The notes under the pieces are model-generated. The model ran no database searches. It worked only from the letters and a program-made list of their open reading frames with translations, and was not told where the DNA came from. From positions 1 through 47,328 of the forward strand of contig JBDLIP010000001.1 in NCBI GenBank assembly GCA_039714795.1: DNA of 47,328 bases, written 5' to 3'. Source of the DNA: Pseudomonadota bacterium. Its GTDB lineage: Bacteria; Pseudomonadota; Alphaproteobacteria; JAGOMX01. Positions 19,092 through 25,328 of the stretch are shown one piece after another (position 1 is the first letter of the stretch; each line of letters starts with the position of its first letter). The position numbers were made by a program, and so were the translations under genes.

Positions 19092-19946
19092 CTAGATATA
19101 CATCTCGTTATCTTCAGAGATAAACTTTTTGTCGTAACCTTCAAACATACAGCGCTCAACCACGTAGGCTTGGGAAAATTCCGTTTTAATACTCTGAAAC
19201 ACGACAGGAAACGGAACTGATATCGGCTGATCACCAGAAAAAGCAAGGCGTTTTTCGAGAGCCTCTCGCTGGCCGCCAATCCAATCAACCCTTTTCTCAT
19301 AAGGTGTACTGGGGTGTATTTTGTGGCTCCGCATACGATAAAGTCCAATGGCGTGCATATAGAGCTCTTTAAGGGCGCCCTGTTCAGCTTGAACCTCGTG
19401 CTCGTTTGCAGCCGCTGCACAGACAAGACCTTCTTCGATTTGCGCATAAAAGATAACAAGCTTTACATTCTTATCCGCTAACTTAGGCCAAATCGCATAA
19501 AAACTGGAAAAACAAAATTCCTTGTCAATTCCTTGAAAAAAGCTTTTGTTTTCTTCATTAACCGCCTCTCTGACTTTGTAGGCGATGTCTTTATTTTCAA
19601 ACCATTCGGGCCATGCATACCTCTCCAACATTTCCCTGTAGGCAATGCTTTTTGCTTTGCGTTGGGCTTTTGCTTTCTGAAAAATAAAAGGATAAGCTGC
19701 AAAACCAGTCGAAGAATTAGCCGTTGAGGATTGATATGCTTTCCGTTCAACGTATTCTGACTGGGCTTTCATAACCGCCTTATACCAAGAAAAATCAGCA
19801 CCACACGCAATACGAGTAAAAATATTGCCAGCTCTTCCCGATTGATCATTAAGGCTACAAATGTACGCCTCCCCCACTTTCAGCTTTTGCAGCGAGAAAG
19901 TCGGAAGAAATTTAGAAAGGTAATTAAAACGAACTTTTTCCAGCAT
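19092..19946 (-). CDS. Hypothetical protein with YcaO-like motif pattern (short 'mini-YcaO' candidate)
   Basis: 284-aa ORF. Three motifs occur in YcaO order. 'KAQSEYVERKAY' resembles E. coli YcaO 'SALGEYFERLS' (recalled from memory). 'SSTGFAAY...AYREMLERYAW' resembles 'VSNGMSAGN...LSEVFERYV'. 'AAAANEHEVQAEQGALKELY' resembles 'FGAHPDFGVALERTVTELL'. A proline motif 'SVPFPVV' lies near the C-terminus. Spacing between motifs 1 and 2 is far shorter than in canonical YcaO. The gene is likely real, but the function is tentative. Confidence 0.45.
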   Translation of the reverse strand: MLEKVRFNYLSKFLPTFSLQKLKVGEAYICSLNDQSGRAGNIFTRIACGADFSWYKAVMKAQSEYVERKAYQSSTANSSTGFAAYPFIFQKAKAQRKAKSIAYREMLERYAWPEWFENKDIAYKVREAVNEENKSFFQGIDKEFCFSSFYAIWPKLADKNVKLVIFYAQIEEGLVCAAAANEHEVQAEQGALKELYMHAIGLYRMRSHKIHPSTPYEKRVDWIGGQREALEKRLAFSGDQPISVPFPVVFQSIKTEFSQAYVVERCMFEGYDKKFISEDNEMYI

Positions 19947-20169
19947 TATTAACCTCCGCTAGTCTTTACAATCAAACAAAATACCCAGCCACTGTACCAA
20001 ATCTCCATCTCAATTGATACTTTTTTTAACTCACTAACATTAATTATATATATTCTTTTTCAATCTTTGACATGATGTTTCTGACGTCAAAAAACTCGAC
20101 TCCTAGCCACAATGACTGGCCATCCGAAACTAGAATGAGCTAATAACCCTAGAAAGAATTATCAACAAG

Positions 20170-20298
20170 CTACAAAATATCTCTCCCAAGTTCCGTCTGT
20201 TCAGAAAGGTTTTCTGCATTCGCGCGATAATTTTCCGCCACAAAACAAAACACCTGCGCCACCAAAATCGCCGATAATAATAGGCAAAATCTTTTCAT
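20170..20298 (-). CDS. Small exported or membrane-anchored peptide, paralogue 2 (42 aa)
   Basis: 'MKRFCLLLSAILVAQVFCFVAENYRANAENLSEQTELGRDIL'. SD 'ggag' lies 10 nt upstream of the ATG at 20298. TAG replaces the CAG of paralogue 1. The ORF track misses it because another frame is longer. Confidence 0.5.
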   Translation of the reverse strand: MKRFCLLLSAILVAQVFCFVAENYRANAENLSEQTELGRDIL

Positions 20299-20529
20299 TT
20301 TCTATCTTCTCCACAAATTGGGGGTACACACCCCTCACTTGCGAGCATCCTAATATTTGCCAGCTAGAAAGGCAAGAAAATATGATAACCAAGTTTGAGA
20401 GATTTTTCTAACTCACTGACATTGGCGGGAGATGTATCTTCTTTTTCAAGTTCTGATACGATCTTTCTCAAAAAAAAACCAACCCCCCAACCAAAATAAT
20501 CGGCCATACAAAACAATAATTAGCTAATG

Positions 20530-20676
20530 TTAGTTAGTATTATCAACAAGCTGCAAAATATCTCTCCCAAGTTCCATCCGCTCAGAAAGGTTCTCTGCAT
20601 TTGCGCGACAATTTTCCGCCACAAAACAAAACACCTGCGCTACTAAAATTGCTGATAGCAGATAAAATCTTTTCAT
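20530..20676 (-). CDS. Small exported or membrane-anchored peptide, paralogue 1 (48 aa)
   Basis: 'MKRFYLLSAILVAQVFCFVAENCRANAENLSERMELGRDILQLVDNTN'. SD 'ggagg' lies 9 nt upstream of the internal ATG at 20676. It has a positively charged n-region plus a 17-aa hydrophobic stretch. It begins 61 nt after the STAND stop. Confidence 0.55.
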   Translation of the reverse strand: MKRFYLLSAILVAQVFCFVAENCRANAENLSERMELGRDILQLVDNTN

Positions 20677-20737
20677 TTTCCACTTCCTCCATAATTGGGC
20701 CTCAAACACCACTCCCGGGCATCCTAATCTCTGACAG

Positions 20738-23700
20738 TTAGAAAGGCAAGAAAATATGATAACCAAAACTAAGAGAGTTTTCTAACTCACTGACATTAGC
20801 AGTAGATGTATCTTCGTTTTCAAGTGCTGATGCGATCTTCTCAATATTTATATGCTGGGGGAGGTAAAAATCCTTGAAAACTCTCAAGGATTTTTTCAAT
20901 AATTCTTTTTTTTCCGTGTTTTCTAGGGTTAGTGCCAGATTGGCCATGGCCATGGCAGTGGTGGGATGATTTTTGCCATAAGAATGGCGGATTGTTTTAA
21001 GTGATTGCTGCAAAAGTTTTCTGGCATTCTGGACATCTCCAAGCAAACGGTAGACATTTCCTAAGTTTGCAGAAACTATGGCCGCTAAGAGATGACCTTC
21101 TCCATATTTCTCGTTAAGCTTTTCAATAGATTTTATGAGCAGTTTTTTACTTTGCAAATAATCTCCTAAAATGCAATGAACAATTCCCATACGCGCAATT
21201 AGAATGGAAATCCATGCATTGGTTGTATTATCATCCTTTTCAACAAATTTGAACGCTTCAGCCAAAAGCTGTTTGCTTTCAGAAGTCTTGTGTGTTGCAG
21301 CACAAGCCAGGGCTAGATTTACCATTGAAAGCGCGGTCCAAATGTGACTGTCTCCATGCAATTTTCTGCGTATTTTTAGGGCATTTCGAAAATATGTTTC
21401 GCTTTTTTGTAAATGACCTAAATCATAATAAACAAATCCCAACAGGATCTGATTGTACGCTAGACTAGAAATTGATGTGGGACTTTGAGAGTTTATGTAA
21501 AGAGCATCATCCAGTATCGTCTTTCCCTCTATCCTTAGACCCAACACATAATTAATCCACCCTAGCATATATAACACCTGAGCCGTTTCGGCATGATTGT
21601 TACCATAATGTTTCTGGTAGAGCACTAGTGTTTGGGCAAGCACGTTTTTGACCGTACGAAACTCCCCTAACAACATGTGTGCTGTACCATACCGGAAAAG
21701 TGCGAGTGCTGTTTTAGGGTGCTCTTTCCCATAGGTTTTTTCACTAATTGCGGCAATTTTTTTAAAAGCGTCTCGCTTTTTAAAGCTTTTGCCCAAATGG
21801 TGATAAACGGAACCCAATAAAGTTAAAATATGCAAGTTGGTTGGATGATTTTCACCATACAGAGATTCATTAATCTTCAAGGCTTCTTCTAAGATATGTT
21901 CTGCTTTATGGGGCTCATTTAAAACACGATAGGTAAGAGTGTAGATAGAAACCTGAGTTTCATCCGAGGTAAAGGAGCTGACCTCTTTTAGAAACTCTTC
22001 CAACCGAGGGATTGTTTGATCTATTAAATGACGTTCTTTGTTAGAAAGATCCGTATTCTTTGTCCTTCCGGGATATATTTCATCAATAACAACTTTCATC
22101 CCTTTCAAATAGGTCAGTCTTTGTTCCTGATCTAATTTATTCCTGAGCCAGCTAGAGACCAAGCGGTGAACCGAGATATCGTCACCTGAGATTTTTATCA
22201 AAGAGTATTGCCGCAAAATACCGAGCAACCTATTCAATTCGCATTCTGATTTATTATTATTGCCTTCAGATAAGTACCGCACCAAAAGCGATTTGGGAAT
22301 GCTTGCTGGCTGACAAAAAGAGATAAAATTCAGCAAATCAAGCGCCTTCTCACCGTCTTTTGTTTTCTTAATAGAGTTTAAACTAAGTTCCCATGTCGCA
22401 TAGACCGGGTCATGTGTAATATTCAAAGGTGTATTGCTATCGGATAACAGATGTTCTCTTTCAGTTTCATACAATTTTAGATAGTTCGAAATTGAAATGG
22501 CGTTTTCTGTGATATAACCTGCGGCTTGAGATATAGCTAAAGGGGTATAATGCAACTCGTTTAATAGTTTGGCAGCTCTTTGTTTATAGAGCGGTCCTTT
22601 CTGAAAGTTAGAAGGAAGTTGCGCTTCGAGCAAGGCAAAAGATTCCTTTTTTGTCATCACGTCAACCTCAACTGCATTTTTTAGCTTATGGTTGCTTGAG
22701 GTTACGATGATGTGAGCATTATTGGGTAGGTAGTCGTATAGCATAACCATATTTGGTGCATTATCATAGACTAGTAGGGTGCTCCCCTTATTTTCAATCC
22801 AAGTTTTTACTTCCCTAATTTTTTGCGCATCAGACATATTATCGGAAAACAGCTTCAGTTTGTTCCCTATCTCAAAATAATCCACCTTTAATGACGATTC
22901 ATTTTCTGCATTAAGCCATGCTCTAAATTTATAGGATTGCCTAGGATAGTGAATGGCATACATCGCTAAAAAAGTCTTACCGATGCCTCCCAATCCAACC
23001 ACCCCTATGATCTTTGTTGATTGTTTTGCTTGATCTTTGTCCTCAAATTGACTCCATATAGAATCCAGCAGTTCGGTTCGCTTAATATAAGGGTCTGGCA
23101 GCAAAGGGAGGTTCCACTTGAGCATTGAAGCACCCTGCTCTTTTGCAGAAGGTGCTGGCGATGATGGTAATGTTGCATGTACAGAAGAGCTATTGTTTTG
23201 CTTGTCTGTATCCCAATATTTTATATTTAAAGTTAAGAGTACTACACAGATTACTCCAAAAAAAGTTACACTAGTCGCAATGAATTTTAAATAAAAATCT
23301 CTGTTTAGTTCTAGCCTTGCTGCTTGTCTTGGCGTATCTGGCTCCGGCATTTTAGCTATGTTTTGTGTTTTAAATTCATCAAAAGATTCACTGATTTTTG
23401 CTTTTGGCAATAGCGTAGCTAAAAGATTCAAGACAAACAGGTAGTAGTTATCAAAATCTCCCAGGGCAAAGCACCCTAAGCACGAGTCAGATTTTTGCAC
23501 GTCTTTGAAAGAGGTTACTGGATCAAGCGAGAGAAAAATTGTTTGCATTCCCTCCTTTTGATGTTCTGGATTGCTAAGTTCTGACGTATCAGCACCAATG
23601 ATGACAACATAAAAATCTGGGAAGGTGCTTGGTGAGATTTCTATCAGCTGGATTCCCGACAGCTCAAGATGCCTTTTCAAACGTTTTATGTTCTCTGAAC

Positions 23701-24124
23701 TAGATTTCACCTTTGTAGAATCGTAATGAATGTGACAGGCAAGTTTTTTTTCGTTCGTCAGACGAGCGATTTCCTTCAGTTCTTTTTCGAAATTTACTTG
23801 CACAGTCAACTGCTTATAATGCTGCCTGAGCAGATCATCTTTTCCAGATCGTTCGATAAATTTGCGGATACTATGACGGCCACTTGATCCTATTTTTTGC
23901 CCGACCGTATTAATATGCGTTTCCACCGTACTTGGCGCAATTGCAAGTCGTGCAGCCACAGATTTTACATCCCACCCGCTTACGATACAGGCCATAACGT
24001 CGATTTGCCGTCGGGTAAATTCTATTCCCTGTATTACATTTAAATGTTTGGAATATAAATCTTCAAAAACTCTATCTTTTCTATTTAACATAATTTTCAT
24101 CTTCATCTTTGCATTGATAGGCAT
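20738..24124 (-). CDS. STAND-class protein: N-terminal LuxR/GerE HTH, hydrophobic helix, NB-ARC NTPase, C-terminal TPR array
   Basis: 1128 aa. HTH 'FTRRQIDVMACIVSGWDVKSVAARLAIAPSTVETHINTVGQKIG' (aa ~35-80). Hydrophobic helix 'YLKFIATSVTFFGVICVVLLTLN' (aa 278-300, nt 23225-23293). Walker A 'GVVGLGGIGKT' (nt 22973-23002). Walker B 'LLVYDNA', then 'IIVTSSN' and the GLPLA-like 'TPLAISQAAGY'. The last ~400 aa are kinesin-light-chain-type TPRs with a recurring 'YG.xHPxTA....LG' pattern. Confidence 0.85.
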   Translation of the reverse strand: MPINAKMKMKIMLNRKDRVFEDLYSKHLNVIQGIEFTRRQIDVMACIVSGWDVKSVAARLAIAPSTVETHINTVGQKIGSSGRHSIRKFIERSGKDDLLRQHYKQLTVQVNFEKELKEIARLTNEKKLACHIHYDSTKVKSSSENIKRLKRHLELSGIQLIEISPSTFPDFYVVIIGADTSELSNPEHQKEGMQTIFLSLDPVTSFKDVQKSDSCLGCFALGDFDNYYLFVLNLLATLLPKAKISESFDEFKTQNIAKMPEPDTPRQAARLELNRDFYLKFIATSVTFFGVICVVLLTLNIKYWDTDKQNNSSSVHATLPSSPAPSAKEQGASMLKWNLPLLPDPYIKRTELLDSIWSQFEDKDQAKQSTKIIGVVGLGGIGKTFLAMYAIHYPRQSYKFRAWLNAENESSLKVDYFEIGNKLKLFSDNMSDAQKIREVKTWIENKGSTLLVYDNAPNMVMLYDYLPNNAHIIVTSSNHKLKNAVEVDVMTKKESFALLEAQLPSNFQKGPLYKQRAAKLLNELHYTPLAISQAAGYITENAISISNYLKLYETEREHLLSDSNTPLNITHDPVYATWELSLNSIKKTKDGEKALDLLNFISFCQPASIPKSLLVRYLSEGNNNKSECELNRLLGILRQYSLIKISGDDISVHRLVSSWLRNKLDQEQRLTYLKGMKVVIDEIYPGRTKNTDLSNKERHLIDQTIPRLEEFLKEVSSFTSDETQVSIYTLTYRVLNEPHKAEHILEEALKINESLYGENHPTNLHILTLLGSVYHHLGKSFKKRDAFKKIAAISEKTYGKEHPKTALALFRYGTAHMLLGEFRTVKNVLAQTLVLYQKHYGNNHAETAQVLYMLGWINYVLGLRIEGKTILDDALYINSQSPTSISSLAYNQILLGFVYYDLGHLQKSETYFRNALKIRRKLHGDSHIWTALSMVNLALACAATHKTSESKQLLAEAFKFVEKDDNTTNAWISILIARMGIVHCILGDYLQSKKLLIKSIEKLNEKYGEGHLLAAIVSANLGNVYRLLGDVQNARKLLQQSLKTIRHSYGKNHPTTAMAMANLALTLENTEKKELLKKSLRVFKDFYLPQHINIEKIASALENEDTSTANVSELENSLSFGYHIFLPF

Positions 24125-24184
24125 TGATTTACTTTAAGATCAGAATCTATACTTAAAGAAAAATGAACTCCCTATTTTCTGTTA

Positions 24185-24260
24185 CGCTCAAAGCTCAAAG
24201 TGCCTACTTACCAGTGCAAACTCTACGCTTGCAGAATATCATTAAGCTAGAGATTTTCAT
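24185..24260 (-). repeat. Degenerate MITE remnant in the STAND-gene upstream region
   Basis: 'gctcaaagtgcctacttaccagtgcaaactctacgcttgcagaatatcattaagctagagattttcatc' aligns with the core and right arm of the reverse-oriented element. The left arm is absent. Confidence 0.55.
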
Positions 24261-24474
24261 CTGTCATTGGTACGTATCAACAGCACATTTCCTTTTAACA
24301 TAAGTGTTGGGTTCACCGCAAATTTTTACAACAACCAACTAGCGGTATCATCAGGACCGCGGTTTTTGTCCAAATGATTTTTGAGTTTTACTTGTAAAAT
24401 TCAAAATCGTTTGGTAACAAAAACGTATATTTTTGAACCACGCATAAAATTGGAAGTTGTTTCGCTCACATTAC

Positions 24475-24924
24475 TTAGTTATAGTGAGTATTGCTGTGGT
24501 TGATGTTGAAGGCGGTGCCATCTTTAACAAATCCCTGTTCCAATTTTGGAACTGGAGCTTCATCTAACCGCCGGATGTTACCATAAAAAGGAGTGATGAC
24601 AATTTCGGCACTGATGGTGTGAGGGCACTTGCTATGAGGGCATTGGTGACAGGATCCATAACGAACGTACTCCAGCTGACCTTCGATAAAAACCCCATCC
24701 CTTTTTTTGAGGTGCAAGTCAATATACTCTCTGGCCATAAAGTCGGTAACTGTAACCGTGTGCCGCCGGCATCTGATGTAGGTAAACCCGGTGGGCTCTT
24801 CACCAAAATCCCGGGTGATCACACTGAGAATGGTTTGAGCGTGGGTGGTTTTATCCCCCAAAGTATAGGGTGCAGCATCAATATAGCCAAGAAGGGTTAC
24901 TCGGTTGATTGAGTTTGTTTGCAT
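24475..24924 (-). CDS. Divergent SSB-like OB-fold protein without the acidic C-terminal tip
   Basis: 'INRVTLLGYIDAAP', 'EYIDLHLKKRDGVFIEGQLEY.RY' and 'ISAEIVIT' align with E. coli SSB 'VNKVILVGNLGQDP', '[20 protein letters not shown]' and 'YTTEVVVN' (recalled from memory). A Cys/His-rich insert 'SCHQCPHSKCPH' is present (nt 24619-24651). The C-terminus 'NINHSNTHYN' lacks a DDDIPF-like tail. Confidence 0.6.
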   Translation of the reverse strand: MQTNSINRVTLLGYIDAAPYTLGDKTTHAQTILSVITRDFGEEPTGFTYIRCRRHTVTVTDFMAREYIDLHLKKRDGVFIEGQLEYVRYGSCHQCPHSKCPHTISAEIVITPFYGNIRRLDEAPVPKLEQGFVKDGTAFNINHSNTHYN

Positions 24925-25328
24925 GGGAAATTCCTTTTTGTTTTACGTCGCTTGAGTTTATGAAATACCTCAGAGCATTCTTGCCAAGGCATAAACGCGC
25001 GACAACCCACCACTGCAAAAAGAACAGGTGTCTTTTTTCTGACACAATTCTCCATCTCGCCGACCCACCAATGACCAACACAAAGTAGGCTGTTGATCTA
25101 CAGGGCCCCAAAACAAAGGGGATCTGCATAAAATGGTGGTGCCGGGGGTAGGGATGAGATAGAGTAGCGTCAGCCACGGTGTCGATCTCCTATGATCACA
25201 TTGCGGTTAGCGGTAACGTGAGTGTTGTTCTCACTCGGTTGCCGCGCTCATTTTTGATGCTACTCCGGTTGGGTGGCAAAAGCAACCCCCTATTTGTCAA
25301 AGTTGCTCAGTGAAAATGGGCTACCTAC

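Follow-up and report, generated by a model that had tools for sequence, protein, structure and literature searches.

A tandemly duplicated small-peptide gene between a STAND regulator gene and a YcaO-fold enzyme gene: a candidate precursor or signal-peptide cassette in uncultured Alphaproteobacteria

Why should the 3' end of a large regulatory gene recur downstream of itself, in alternation with copies of a small peptide gene? The question is raised by a 47,328-nucleotide stretch of alphaproteobacterial DNA (Pseudomonadota bacterium, GTDB lineage Bacteria; Pseudomonadota; Alphaproteobacteria; JAGOMX01; assembly GCA_039714795.1, contig JBDLIP010000001.1, positions 1 to 47,328; hereafter the window), which is a contig of a metagenome-assembled genome (MAG; locus tags ABFQ95_). 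Its AtpD is 82–85% identical to the proteins of Rhodospirillales, Stellaceae and other alphaproteobacterial MAGs, in line with an uncultured alphaproteobacterium as the host. Here the gene for a STAND-type regulator is followed by a tandem array with two copies of a small peptide gene (pep1 and pep2) and then by the gene for a small YcaO-fold enzyme (mini-YcaO). The STAND, peptide and mini-YcaO genes of the window, the repeat copies and the promoter-like sites all lie on the minus strand. A preliminary description, made from the letters and the translated open reading frames (ORFs), had pointed out the array and its peptide genes and proposed that unequal crossing-over had amplified them. The reading that we favour, to which we give a probability of about one half, is that STAND gene, peptide gene and mini-YcaO gene form a precursor or signal-peptide cassette under STAND regulation, with pep1 as the working copy and pep2 probably inactive.

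Direct-repeat searches and a three-way alignment resolve the array, which runs from 20842 down to 20012, into about 2.2 head-to-tail units of 374–381 bp, each composed of the last 105 bp of the STAND ORF, a spacer of 61–65 nt ending in GGAG(G), the small ORF and about 60 nt of further sequence. The period of ~375 bp first proposed is borne out by direct repeats spaced 374–381 bp apart (20336–20465 and 20710–20839, 130 nt, 86% identical and ungapped; 20150–20276 and 20531–20657, 127 nt, 89%; 20277–20336 and 20655–20714, 60 nt, 72%). Tandem Repeats Finder reported no array at a 375-bp period, because there are only 2.2 copies and these are diverged and carry indels. Unit 1 begins with the live STAND 3' end (copy A1, 20738–20842), which encodes EKIASALENEDTSTANVSELENSLSFGYHIFLPF followed by the stop codon, and continues with spacer 1 (20677–20737), in which a motif kept in relatives (TGGCAAAGATTAAGAT-like) precedes a GGAGG Shine-Dalgarno sequence. 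Next come pep1 (20530–20676; 48 aa, full length, MKRFYLLSAILVAQVFCFVAENCRANAENLSERMELGRDILQLVDNTN), with a signal-like N-terminus and a C-terminal L-V-D-N motif, and a post-ORF segment (20469–20529) that reaches up to the junction between the units (...GGTTTTTTTTT / GAGAAAGATCG). Unit 2 repeats this order with a displaced STAND 3' end that keeps frame and stop (copy A2, 20364–20468, RKIVSELEKEDTSPANVSELEKSLKLGYHIFLPF), spacer 2 with a GGAG Shine-Dalgarno sequence (20299–20363), pep2 (20170–20298; 42 aa, ABFQ95_00110), in which TAG stands for CAG and Cys23 is replaced by Tyr, the leftover codons past the premature TAG that would have encoded the cut-off Asn core (20149–20169; LVDNSF and a stop), and a post-ORF segment (20086–20148) that ends at the second junction (...GAGTTTTTT / GACGTCAGAAAC). 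The third copy, A3 (~20012–20085), is a degenerate relic of the STAND 3' end that breaks off after ...GTGAGTTAAAAAA; its Smith-Waterman score of 45 compares with 16.4 ± 2.2 in shuffled sequences, none of 1000 of which reached 45.

The first description holds for the two small ORFs and the peptides they encode, for the GGAG(G) Shine-Dalgarno sequences and for the change of CAG to TAG, and the shuffle test substantiates the relic. The displaced tail had been called almost identical to the live one apart from a 1-nt indel. Its stop codon does lie at the same position, the reading frame is preserved and a single additional A at the extreme 5' edge is the sole indel, but 15 substitutions over 105 nt (86–87% identity) are more than that wording allows. 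Identity between units 1 and 2 is 87% in the STAND tail, 73% in the spacer and 64% in the post-ORF segment; the peptide ORFs are 85% identical in a gapped global alignment and 89% identical over an ungapped stretch of 127 nt.

The small ORF is not a peculiarity of the window. In related loci (contigs encoding mini-YcaO relatives, numbered L and compared by tblastn and ORF listing) an intact small ORF lies between the STAND and mini-YcaO genes in 11 of 11 cases; a peptide gene downstream of STAND homologues is what the preliminary description had suggested looking for, and the frameshifts or stops that it named as evidence to the contrary were found in none of these loci. When 14 peptides are aligned, they share an MKK or MKR start, a hydrophobic stretch of 15–17 residues, a small residue ahead of an acidic segment, and a C-terminal motif [L/I/P]-[A/V/S/C]-x-N, the Asn of which is invariant in all 13 full-length peptides and is followed by one to six hypervariable residues (LVDN-TN in pep1 of the window; LSGN-GDH, LADN-WGSD, PANN-DSD, LASN-HG, PACN-GTQD and PADN-SDHD elsewhere). 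The ratio of the proportions of non-synonymous and synonymous differences (pN/pS) is 0.22 between pep1 and pep2, at a pS of 0.345, and 0.25–0.67 among orthologues, so that the earlier suggestion of diversification between the two copies finds no support. To judge from these substitutions, the small ORF is a genuine gene under coding constraint. Its N-terminus appears to be a Sec-type signal: judged by eye, the signal-peptidase sites of distant orthologues are of the textbook kind (ASA|K, VKA|G, SIA|E), and the window peptides have ANA|E or C-R-A|N. The first reading of this N-terminus as a Sec signal or an anchor is supported on its Sec-like side, and a CxA/AxA site lies 5–7 residues beyond the poor cleavage site that it saw before 'EN'. 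In L010 (5843–5963) and L015 (5774–5894) three 39-nt tandem repeats within the peptide gene encode (R/Y)PAGNHDE(R) three times over, which makes this peptide, by its sequence, a multi-core precursor. A third paralogue in the MAG of the window, MKRFYLLSAILVAQVFCLIGTGDFSERPELGRDILGIVENSI (MEN8237553.1, ABFQ95_08495, P0002), is encoded on a separate 1872-bp contig; compared with pep1 (62% identity), the ENCRANAEN segment is missing, and both ends and the C-terminal Asn are retained.

What the peptide most likely is depends on its neighbour, since a YcaO-fold enzyme, which had escaped the first reading, changes the expectation. The mini-YcaO gene (19092–19946; 284 aa, ABFQ95_00105) has a GGAGG Shine-Dalgarno sequence of its own. 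Its product has no Pfam or NCBIfam match above cut-off, and PDB sequence searches with the single sequence or a profile gave nothing useful; fold comparison alone was successful. An AlphaFold2 model built from the alignment of homologues (predicted local distance difference test, pLDDT, 92.8; predicted template modelling score, pTM, 0.91) has the YcaO fold, all of the top 15 Foldseek matches in the PDB being YcaO-domain structures (probability 1.0, TMq 0.48–0.61), among them 6ci7, 6cib, 6gri, 6gos, 4q84 and 4q85, which represent the YcaO of M. kandleri, the microcin synthetase McbBCD complex and the YcaO of E. coli. The 27 homologues are 32–81% identical, and some carry a precomputed match to PF02624 (YcaO). 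Residues K60, E64, V66-E67-R68, E105 and E108-R109 are invariant in the 28 sequences, and the regions of E64/E67-R68 and E105/E108-R109 align to positions 115–142 of the Pfam YcaO profile; they are candidates for the acidic ExxER-type motifs that bind ATP and Mg2+ in YcaO proteins. Mini-YcaO is presumably ATP-dependent and amide-activating. A profile search of 1.84 billion representative proteins retrieved 433 mini-YcaO clusters, 123 of them at E <= 1e-30 and nearly all of 290–320 aa; no NCBIfam model covers the family.

On the other side of the peptide gene, the STAND regulator (20738–24124; 1128 aa) comprises, by Pfam and NCBIfam matches and by inspection of its transmembrane (TM) and Walker A segments, a LuxR/GerE helix-turn-helix (HTH) domain (36–83), a TM-like segment, an NB-ARC domain (354–541) with an intact Walker A motif (GLGGIGKT), DUF7779 and an array of TPR_12/TPR_10 repeats. 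The best NCBIfam match is FxSxx_TPR (NF040586), at 278.5 bits, below its cut-off of 300; the HaaT model is also matched below cut-off, and no RRNPP receptor family is found among the Pfam and NCBIfam matches. The TM-like segment (residues 281–299, window 23228–23284) consists of 19 strongly hydrophobic residues, FIATSVTFFGVICVVLLTL, and is kept in position, not in sequence, in all five full-length STAND homologues examined. The C-terminus, ...Y-x-I/L-L/F-L-P-F/L, is conserved down to 34% overall identity. The domain order is the reverse of that in LAL/MalT-type LuxR regulators, which have an N-terminal ATPase and a C-terminal LuxR HTH domain, and the TM segment lies between the two. When the whole STAND protein was compared with genome contigs, the sole match was to a TPR protein of a Saprospiraceae MAG (L002) that is unrelated, and exact look-ups of pep1, P0002 and the STAND protein retrieved no contig. 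PADLOC gave no defence-system match, and an Avs-like defence function, which had been considered, was dropped on this ground.

The order STAND gene, small peptide gene, mini-YcaO gene is found in 11 other loci (L003–L007, L009, L010/L015, L011, L014 and L018/L019), in which the STAND proteins are 64–69% (L003–L007) or 30–41% (L009, L010, L011) identical to that of the window. The surroundings of the cassette differ from locus to locus: in the window it lies between the atpB operon and an unannotated 149-aa ORF that adjoins alaS, in L003 between an HSP20 gene and carD, and in L015 and L018 between an NMO gene and a Fer4_20-domain gene. In the window, the G+C content over the STAND gene and the repeat array (20001–25000) is 0.38–0.40, compared with ~0.44–0.49 in the flanks (alaS, recA, ATP synthase). 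Given the differing flanks and the low G+C content, the cassette behaves as a movable module, which suggests horizontal movement. More distant relatives of mini-YcaO have other company. In L016 (2654–8630) and L017 (2652–8282) a different conserved operon has the gene order sigma54 response regulator, 118-aa protein with a signal-like N-terminus, SBP_bac_5 protein, mini-YcaO (~32% identical in L016) and histidine kinase, with some start and stop codons overlapping, and the short contig L020 (3–3204) holds only a homologue of the substrate-binding protein (SBP), mini-YcaO and the kinase. Sensor or regulator genes adjoin mini-YcaO in every context seen except L008. Within the window neighbourhood and the gene tables of L003, L014, L015 and L018, no exporter, immunity or protease gene is conserved as part of the cassette, nor is a dehydrogenase partner gene, and neither a zincin metallopeptidase nor a radical-SAM/SPASM maturase was found in the window neighbourhood or the related loci.

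How did the peptide gene come to be duplicated? In each of the five close relatives (L003–L007) the peptide gene is single and is not followed by a relic of the relative's own STAND tail, and the duplication is therefore specific to the lineage of the window, in keeping with the tandem amplification first proposed. Both unit junctions have the same form (...GTTTTTT, then (G)AGAAA(G/C)ATC...), which argues for descent from one original junction, and relic A3 is far more diverged than copy A2. The simplest history would have two steps: early on, a copy of the STAND tail would have come to lie downstream of the peptide gene, and unequal crossing-over between this old displaced tail, now the relic, and the live tail would then have produced the order tail-pep-tail-pep-tail. 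An alternative history is triplication followed by deletion. With five outgroups, nine derived changes can be assigned to each of pep1 and pep2; in pep2 they comprise, among others, Y5C accompanied by an additional Leu, the replacement of Cys23 and the TAG that deletes the whole Asn core. The pN/pS of 0.22 at a pS of 0.345 implies that selection preserved pep2 during the greater part of the period after the duplication, and the loss of the conserved Cys23 and, through the TAG, of the family-invariant C-terminal motif makes it probably inactive now. Its sequence thus marks pep2 as probably a decaying copy rather than a second working signal, and the best explanation of the intact pep1 is that it is the working copy.

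Duplications of this kind have arisen more than once. An independent tandem duplication at L014 (4532–6100; GCA_024279475.1, JAJRRM010000117.1) has a unit of 807–831 bp with other boundaries, which begins within the STAND 3' end, of which it contains 200 bp or more, and takes in the peptide gene and the complete intergenic region as well as the first ~100 bp of the mini-YcaO gene. The two peptides encoded there are intact and 50 aa long, and their DNA is 94% identical apart from a dense cluster of changes in the last four codons after ...NGTQD (SDDD as opposed to AQSD). With the repeated core of L010/L015, peptide or core has been multiplied three times independently in the family. The STAND gene of L014 was called as two ORFs (384 and 735 aa), possibly owing to a frameshift.

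That the repeat unit carries the end of the regulator gene may bear on how the peptide is expressed. Since the spacer is only 61–65 bp long, a promoter of the peptide gene would have to sit in the STAND 3' end, as the preliminary description had surmised, and two pairs of promoter-like sites are found there. Pa, a sigma70-like match (TAGAAA-17-TATCAT), lies within the STAND coding tail in unit 1 (20756–20784) and recurs with identical hexamers in unit 2 (20382–20410); it ends ~80 nt ahead of the peptide ATG, and the blocks that contain its hexamers do not differ between units 1 and 2, while the 17 nt between the hexamers differ at five positions. Pb (TTGCCT-17-TAGGAT, 8 of 12 matches; 20721–20749 in unit 1, with a promoter-like counterpart at 20347–20375 in unit 2) has its -35 element in the last STAND codons and its -10 element just past the stop. 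Both are present at the same positions among L003–L007 (Pb in L003, L004, L006 and L007). Of 14 differences between the tail copies compared with the outgroups, nine are derived in the live gene (six of them at codon positions 1–2) and four in the displaced copy, a difference in rate that is not significant (P = 0.17); compared with the 14–19 changes per 105 nt expected from the divergence of the flanking non-coding DNA or from pS, the 4–5 changes in the displaced tail are few (P <= 0.005), and this copy is either constrained or refreshed by gene conversion. The conserved sites, the well-kept displaced tail and the inclusion of the STAND 3' end in the L014 duplication make the promoter plausible and no more than suggestive.

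Three further features of this region may be recorded. The displaced tail lies within an open 47–50-aa ORF (20364–20516, MADYFGWGVGFFLRKIVSELEKEDTSPANVSELEKSLKLGYHIFLPF) that has no Shine-Dalgarno sequence; three of its four derived changes are at third codon positions (P = 0.11), and it keeps the ancestral RKIVSELEK, as does L006, which is altered in the live STAND tail, too thin a basis for proposing that it is translated. A 21-nt inverted repeat (20724–20744 and 20779–20799; 81% complementary, 34 nt apart) flanks the last STAND codons, and relatives keep it only in part. Directly behind the STAND stop, ~22 nt of the form (A/G)TGGCAAA(G/T)ATTA(A/G)GAT are conserved across the close clade L003–L007 and could be an operator or a -10 region. 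Folding of the spacers and post-ORF segments gave no significant structure, the consensus hairpin of the spacer having only 3 bp.

Combining these elements, we envisage a precursor or signal-peptide cassette that would work as follows. Each unit would have its own ribosome-binding site and probably its own promoter within the STAND 3' end. The peptide would be made as a pre-peptide of ~48 aa, cytoplasmic mini-YcaO would use ATP to modify or process the backbone at the conserved Asn-containing C-terminal core, and the Sec-type N-terminus would export the peptide. The TPR array of the membrane-anchored STAND protein would then sense the product as a signal, and its LuxR-type HTH domain would control transcription, plausibly that of the peptide promoter itself. 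We lean towards a signal rather than an antibiotic because the cassette has no exporter, immunity, protease or partner genes and because distant mini-YcaO members are wired into two-component systems.

A number of observations weigh against this reading. Mini-YcaO of the window scores only 11.6 bits against the Pfam YcaO gathering cut-off of 25.7; 23 of the 28 family members match this model weakly, and P0008, P0012, P0016, P0020 and P0023 pass it at 27–34 bits. No E1/ThiF-like or TfuA partner gene is present in the window neighbourhood or in the gene tables of L003, L014, L015 and L018, the peptide core has no conserved run of Cys, Ser or Thr in the 14-peptide alignment, and it is unusual for the substrate of a cytoplasmic enzyme to have a Sec signal. 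With one TM segment separating HTH from NB-ARC, the domains that bind DNA and ATP would face opposite sides of the membrane; no topology puts both in the cytoplasm, and by the positive-inside rule the flanking charges are ambiguous and leave the orientation undecided. The gene pairing is not strict, in that the mini-YcaO orthologue of L008 (1–2660), 77% identical, has no STAND or peptide gene upstream. As regards expression, the promoter matches are weak (8–9 of 12) and overlap conserved codons, which is why we take them as suggestive only; gene conversion could explain the well-kept displaced tail; the array contains no minus-strand terminator in a terminator scan and no RNA family in Rfam at either gathering or permissive thresholds. 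Reading of the translations shows an isochorismatase-like ORF and an HTH ORF upstream of mini-YcaO in L008, where conserved sequence just upstream of the YcaO start is also kept.

Could the repeat be unreal, or real and without function? That it is an assembly artefact of a metagenome bin, such as a strain chimera, or else a non-coding or regulatory RNA repeat, is highly improbable. The window is indeed a MAG contig, the same bin has the third paralogue on another contig, of 1.9 kb, and an independent Logan assembly at k=31 (L001, run SRR27843388) breaks within the repeat. That contig starts exactly at the longest exact word common to both units, which is 31 nt long and where a k=31 assembler is expected to break, and from the middle of pep2, TAG included, it matches the window through the relic into the YcaO gene. 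A graph mis-join would need more than the ~10 nt that the unit junctions have in common with the STAND gene, so that a chimeric assembly is unlikely; an analogous duplication is found in the unrelated assembly of L014, the substitution pattern is clearly that of coding sequence, and no Rfam family matches. We also doubt strongly that the array is merely a neutral, decaying segmental duplication in which pep2, the second tail and the relic are all junk and the repeated STAND tail has no function. The premature stop and lost Cys23 of pep2, the reduction of the third unit to a relic and the larger number of non-synonymous changes among those derived in pep2 than in pep1 are what such decay would leave. 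The low pN/pS, however, speaks of long maintenance of pep2, tail 2 is significantly better conserved than the flanking non-coding DNA, and peptide or core has gained copies three times independently.

The other alternatives concern the nature of the product. A serious rival, less probable than the cassette reading and still quite possible, is an ordinary cluster for a peptide that is made on the ribosome and modified after translation (RiPP), in which YcaO would modify a secreted antibiotic or metallophore-like product, the STAND/LuxR protein would be a mere pathway regulator that senses something else, and the duplication would be a matter of dosage or neutral. The adjacency of a YcaO-fold enzyme and a short precursor-like ORF fits this view, as does the repeated core of L010/L015, which recalls multi-core RiPPs, and NB-ARC/TPR proteins recur in curated peptide-maturation systems (the FxSxx_TPR and HaaT matches, both below cut-off; PMC7159879). 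Such a cluster is harder to reconcile with the lack of any conserved immunity, exporter, protease or partner (E1/ThiF/TfuA, dehydrogenase) gene, with a core devoid of a Cys/Ser/Thr pattern, and with distant mini-YcaO relatives that reside in sensor-kinase/SBP operons and not in biosynthetic clusters. It is unlikely that the peptide is instead a small protein that stays unmodified and is secreted or anchored in the membrane, where it might be a periplasmic ligand, say, or act as anti-regulator of the membrane-bound STAND protein, and that mini-YcaO acts on a substrate elsewhere, possibly the C-terminal tail of the STAND protein. A signal- or anchor-like N-terminus together with a conserved STAND TM segment would suit this, the STAND C-terminus is conserved down to 34% overall identity, and a YcaO with a protein substrate has a precedent in E. 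coli, where the ribosomal protein uL16 is reported to carry a backbone thioamide (PMC13063428). Yet a short C-terminal Asn motif with hypervariable residues behind it, triplicated in one instance, resembles a processed core and not a folded small protein, and in all cases the peptide gene has the STAND and mini-YcaO genes as its immediate neighbours on either side. The cassette reading also admits a more specific form, which we regard as tentative and rather doubtful: a self-contained peptide autoinducer circuit of Gram-negative Alphaproteobacteria in which the Sec-exported peptide would be modified or processed by mini-YcaO at the invariant Asn and sensed by the TPR array of the membrane-anchored STAND protein, itself a LuxR-type transcription factor, with its promoter in the 3' end of the receptor gene, and in which the family at large would consist of signal-maturation enzymes that pair with STAND proteins or with SBP/histidine-kinase/sigma54 systems. 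If this were true, each duplication of the signal gene would carry its own receptor-controlled promoter.

Several known systems resemble parts of the locus, and the cassette fails defining features of each of them. RRNPP quorum sensing (Rap/Phr, PlcR/PapR, NprR/NprX, AimR/AimP) is known from Firmicutes and their phages. Akin to these pairs, a gene for a regulator with TPR and HTH domains is here directly followed by a gene for a small putative pro-peptide with a Sec-like N-terminus and a conserved C-terminal part; unlike them, the receptor has an NB-ARC ATPase, a TM segment and a LuxR/GerE HTH domain with no detected homology to RRNPP receptors, a YcaO belongs to the cassette, the locus has no Opp importer and the host is Gram-negative. 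Downstream of the polymorphic toxin genes rhs and cdiA lie arrays of orphan C-terminal tips and immunity genes, and here, too, displaced 3'-end copies of a large gene, each then followed by a small ORF, stand downstream of the full-length gene. The tail in question is a conserved 34-aa segment rather than a variable toxin domain, the ORF encodes a conserved peptide with a signal-like N-terminus rather than diverse immunity proteins; the conservation of the tail and its lack of a toxin domain led us to reject an orphan toxin-tip/immunity array, and PADLOC gave no match. Tandem-duplicated or multi-core precursors are familiar from cyanobactins, prochlorosins and multi-precursor lanthipeptide loci, which the present family resembles in that its precursor gene or core has been expanded three times by local duplication; it differs in that the unit of the window drags the regulator 3' end along and that one copy has lost its core.

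Stand-alone YcaO proteins act in RiPP clusters in amidine formation, as for bottromycin and streptamidine (PMC8442711, which also mentions cyanobactins). Shared with such clusters are a short precursor-like ORF beside a YcaO-fold enzyme that has no fused partner domain, a conserved short motif near the peptide C-terminus and, in one lineage, a multi-core precursor; the typical RiPP arrangement of a peptide gene directly upstream of the mini-YcaO gene is present at the 11 related loci, with N-terminus and Asn motif conserved. By contrast, the enzyme here has 284 aa and belongs to a family of ~290–320 aa without a curated model, no E1/ThiF/TfuA partner, dehydrogenase or protease accompanies it, the precursor has a Sec-like N-terminus in place of a cytoplasmic leader, a single invariant Asn has the defining role in the core that Cys/Ser/Thr or an N-terminal amine has there, and the cassette occurs in uncultured Alphaproteobacteria and is always paired with an HTH-TM-NB-ARC-TPR protein. 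Closest in concept are the FxSxx-COOH systems, in which AP-ATPase (NB-ARC)-TPR proteins are coupled to peptide processing and the predicted product is either toxin or signal (Kaur, Burroughs, Iyer, Aravind 2020, PMC7159879). The likeness extends to a STAND NTPase with C-terminal TPRs, a fast-diverging precursor with a conserved C-terminal peptide and a peptide-modifying enzyme. This enzyme, however, is a YcaO here and a zincin peptidase plus a radical-SAM/SPASM enzyme there; an N-terminal LuxR HTH domain and a TM segment take the place of TIR or vWA contexts, the NF040586 score of 278.5 stays under the cut-off of 300, and the hosts are Alphaproteobacteria as opposed to Actinobacteria.

In the literature searched, no paper mentioned both YcaO and NB-ARC and other searches gave nothing relevant; the combination of STAND, peptide and mini-YcaO genes is apparently undescribed so far. 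Tandem duplication of a precursor gene is an ordinary evolutionary event, and the cassette is the more interesting result. Should its proposed function hold, it would represent a new YcaO clade, probably with new chemistry (an Asn-centred core, no partner protein, a Sec-type leader), a candidate ligand for a bacterial STAND/NB-ARC-TPR protein, a class whose ligands are mostly unknown, and one of the few instances in Gram-negative bacteria of peptide signalling that is genetically encoded. With three genes in ~5 kb, the cassette is directly testable by heterologous expression.

Two neighbouring genes deserve mention. In L014, L015 and L018 a gene for a flavin mononucleotide (FMN) oxidoreductase of the NMO family (PF03060) lies directly upstream of the STAND gene, at one of these loci with different downstream genes; it could be a fourth member of the cassette in a distant subclade or could reflect synteny alone. 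In the window, the 149-aa ORF between alaS and the STAND gene (24475–24924, minus strand) has no Pfam, NCBIfam or PADLOC match; by eye we take it to resemble a single-stranded DNA-binding protein (SSB)-like protein of the oligonucleotide/oligosaccharide-binding (OB) fold with a Cys/His-rich insert, CHQCPHSKCPH.

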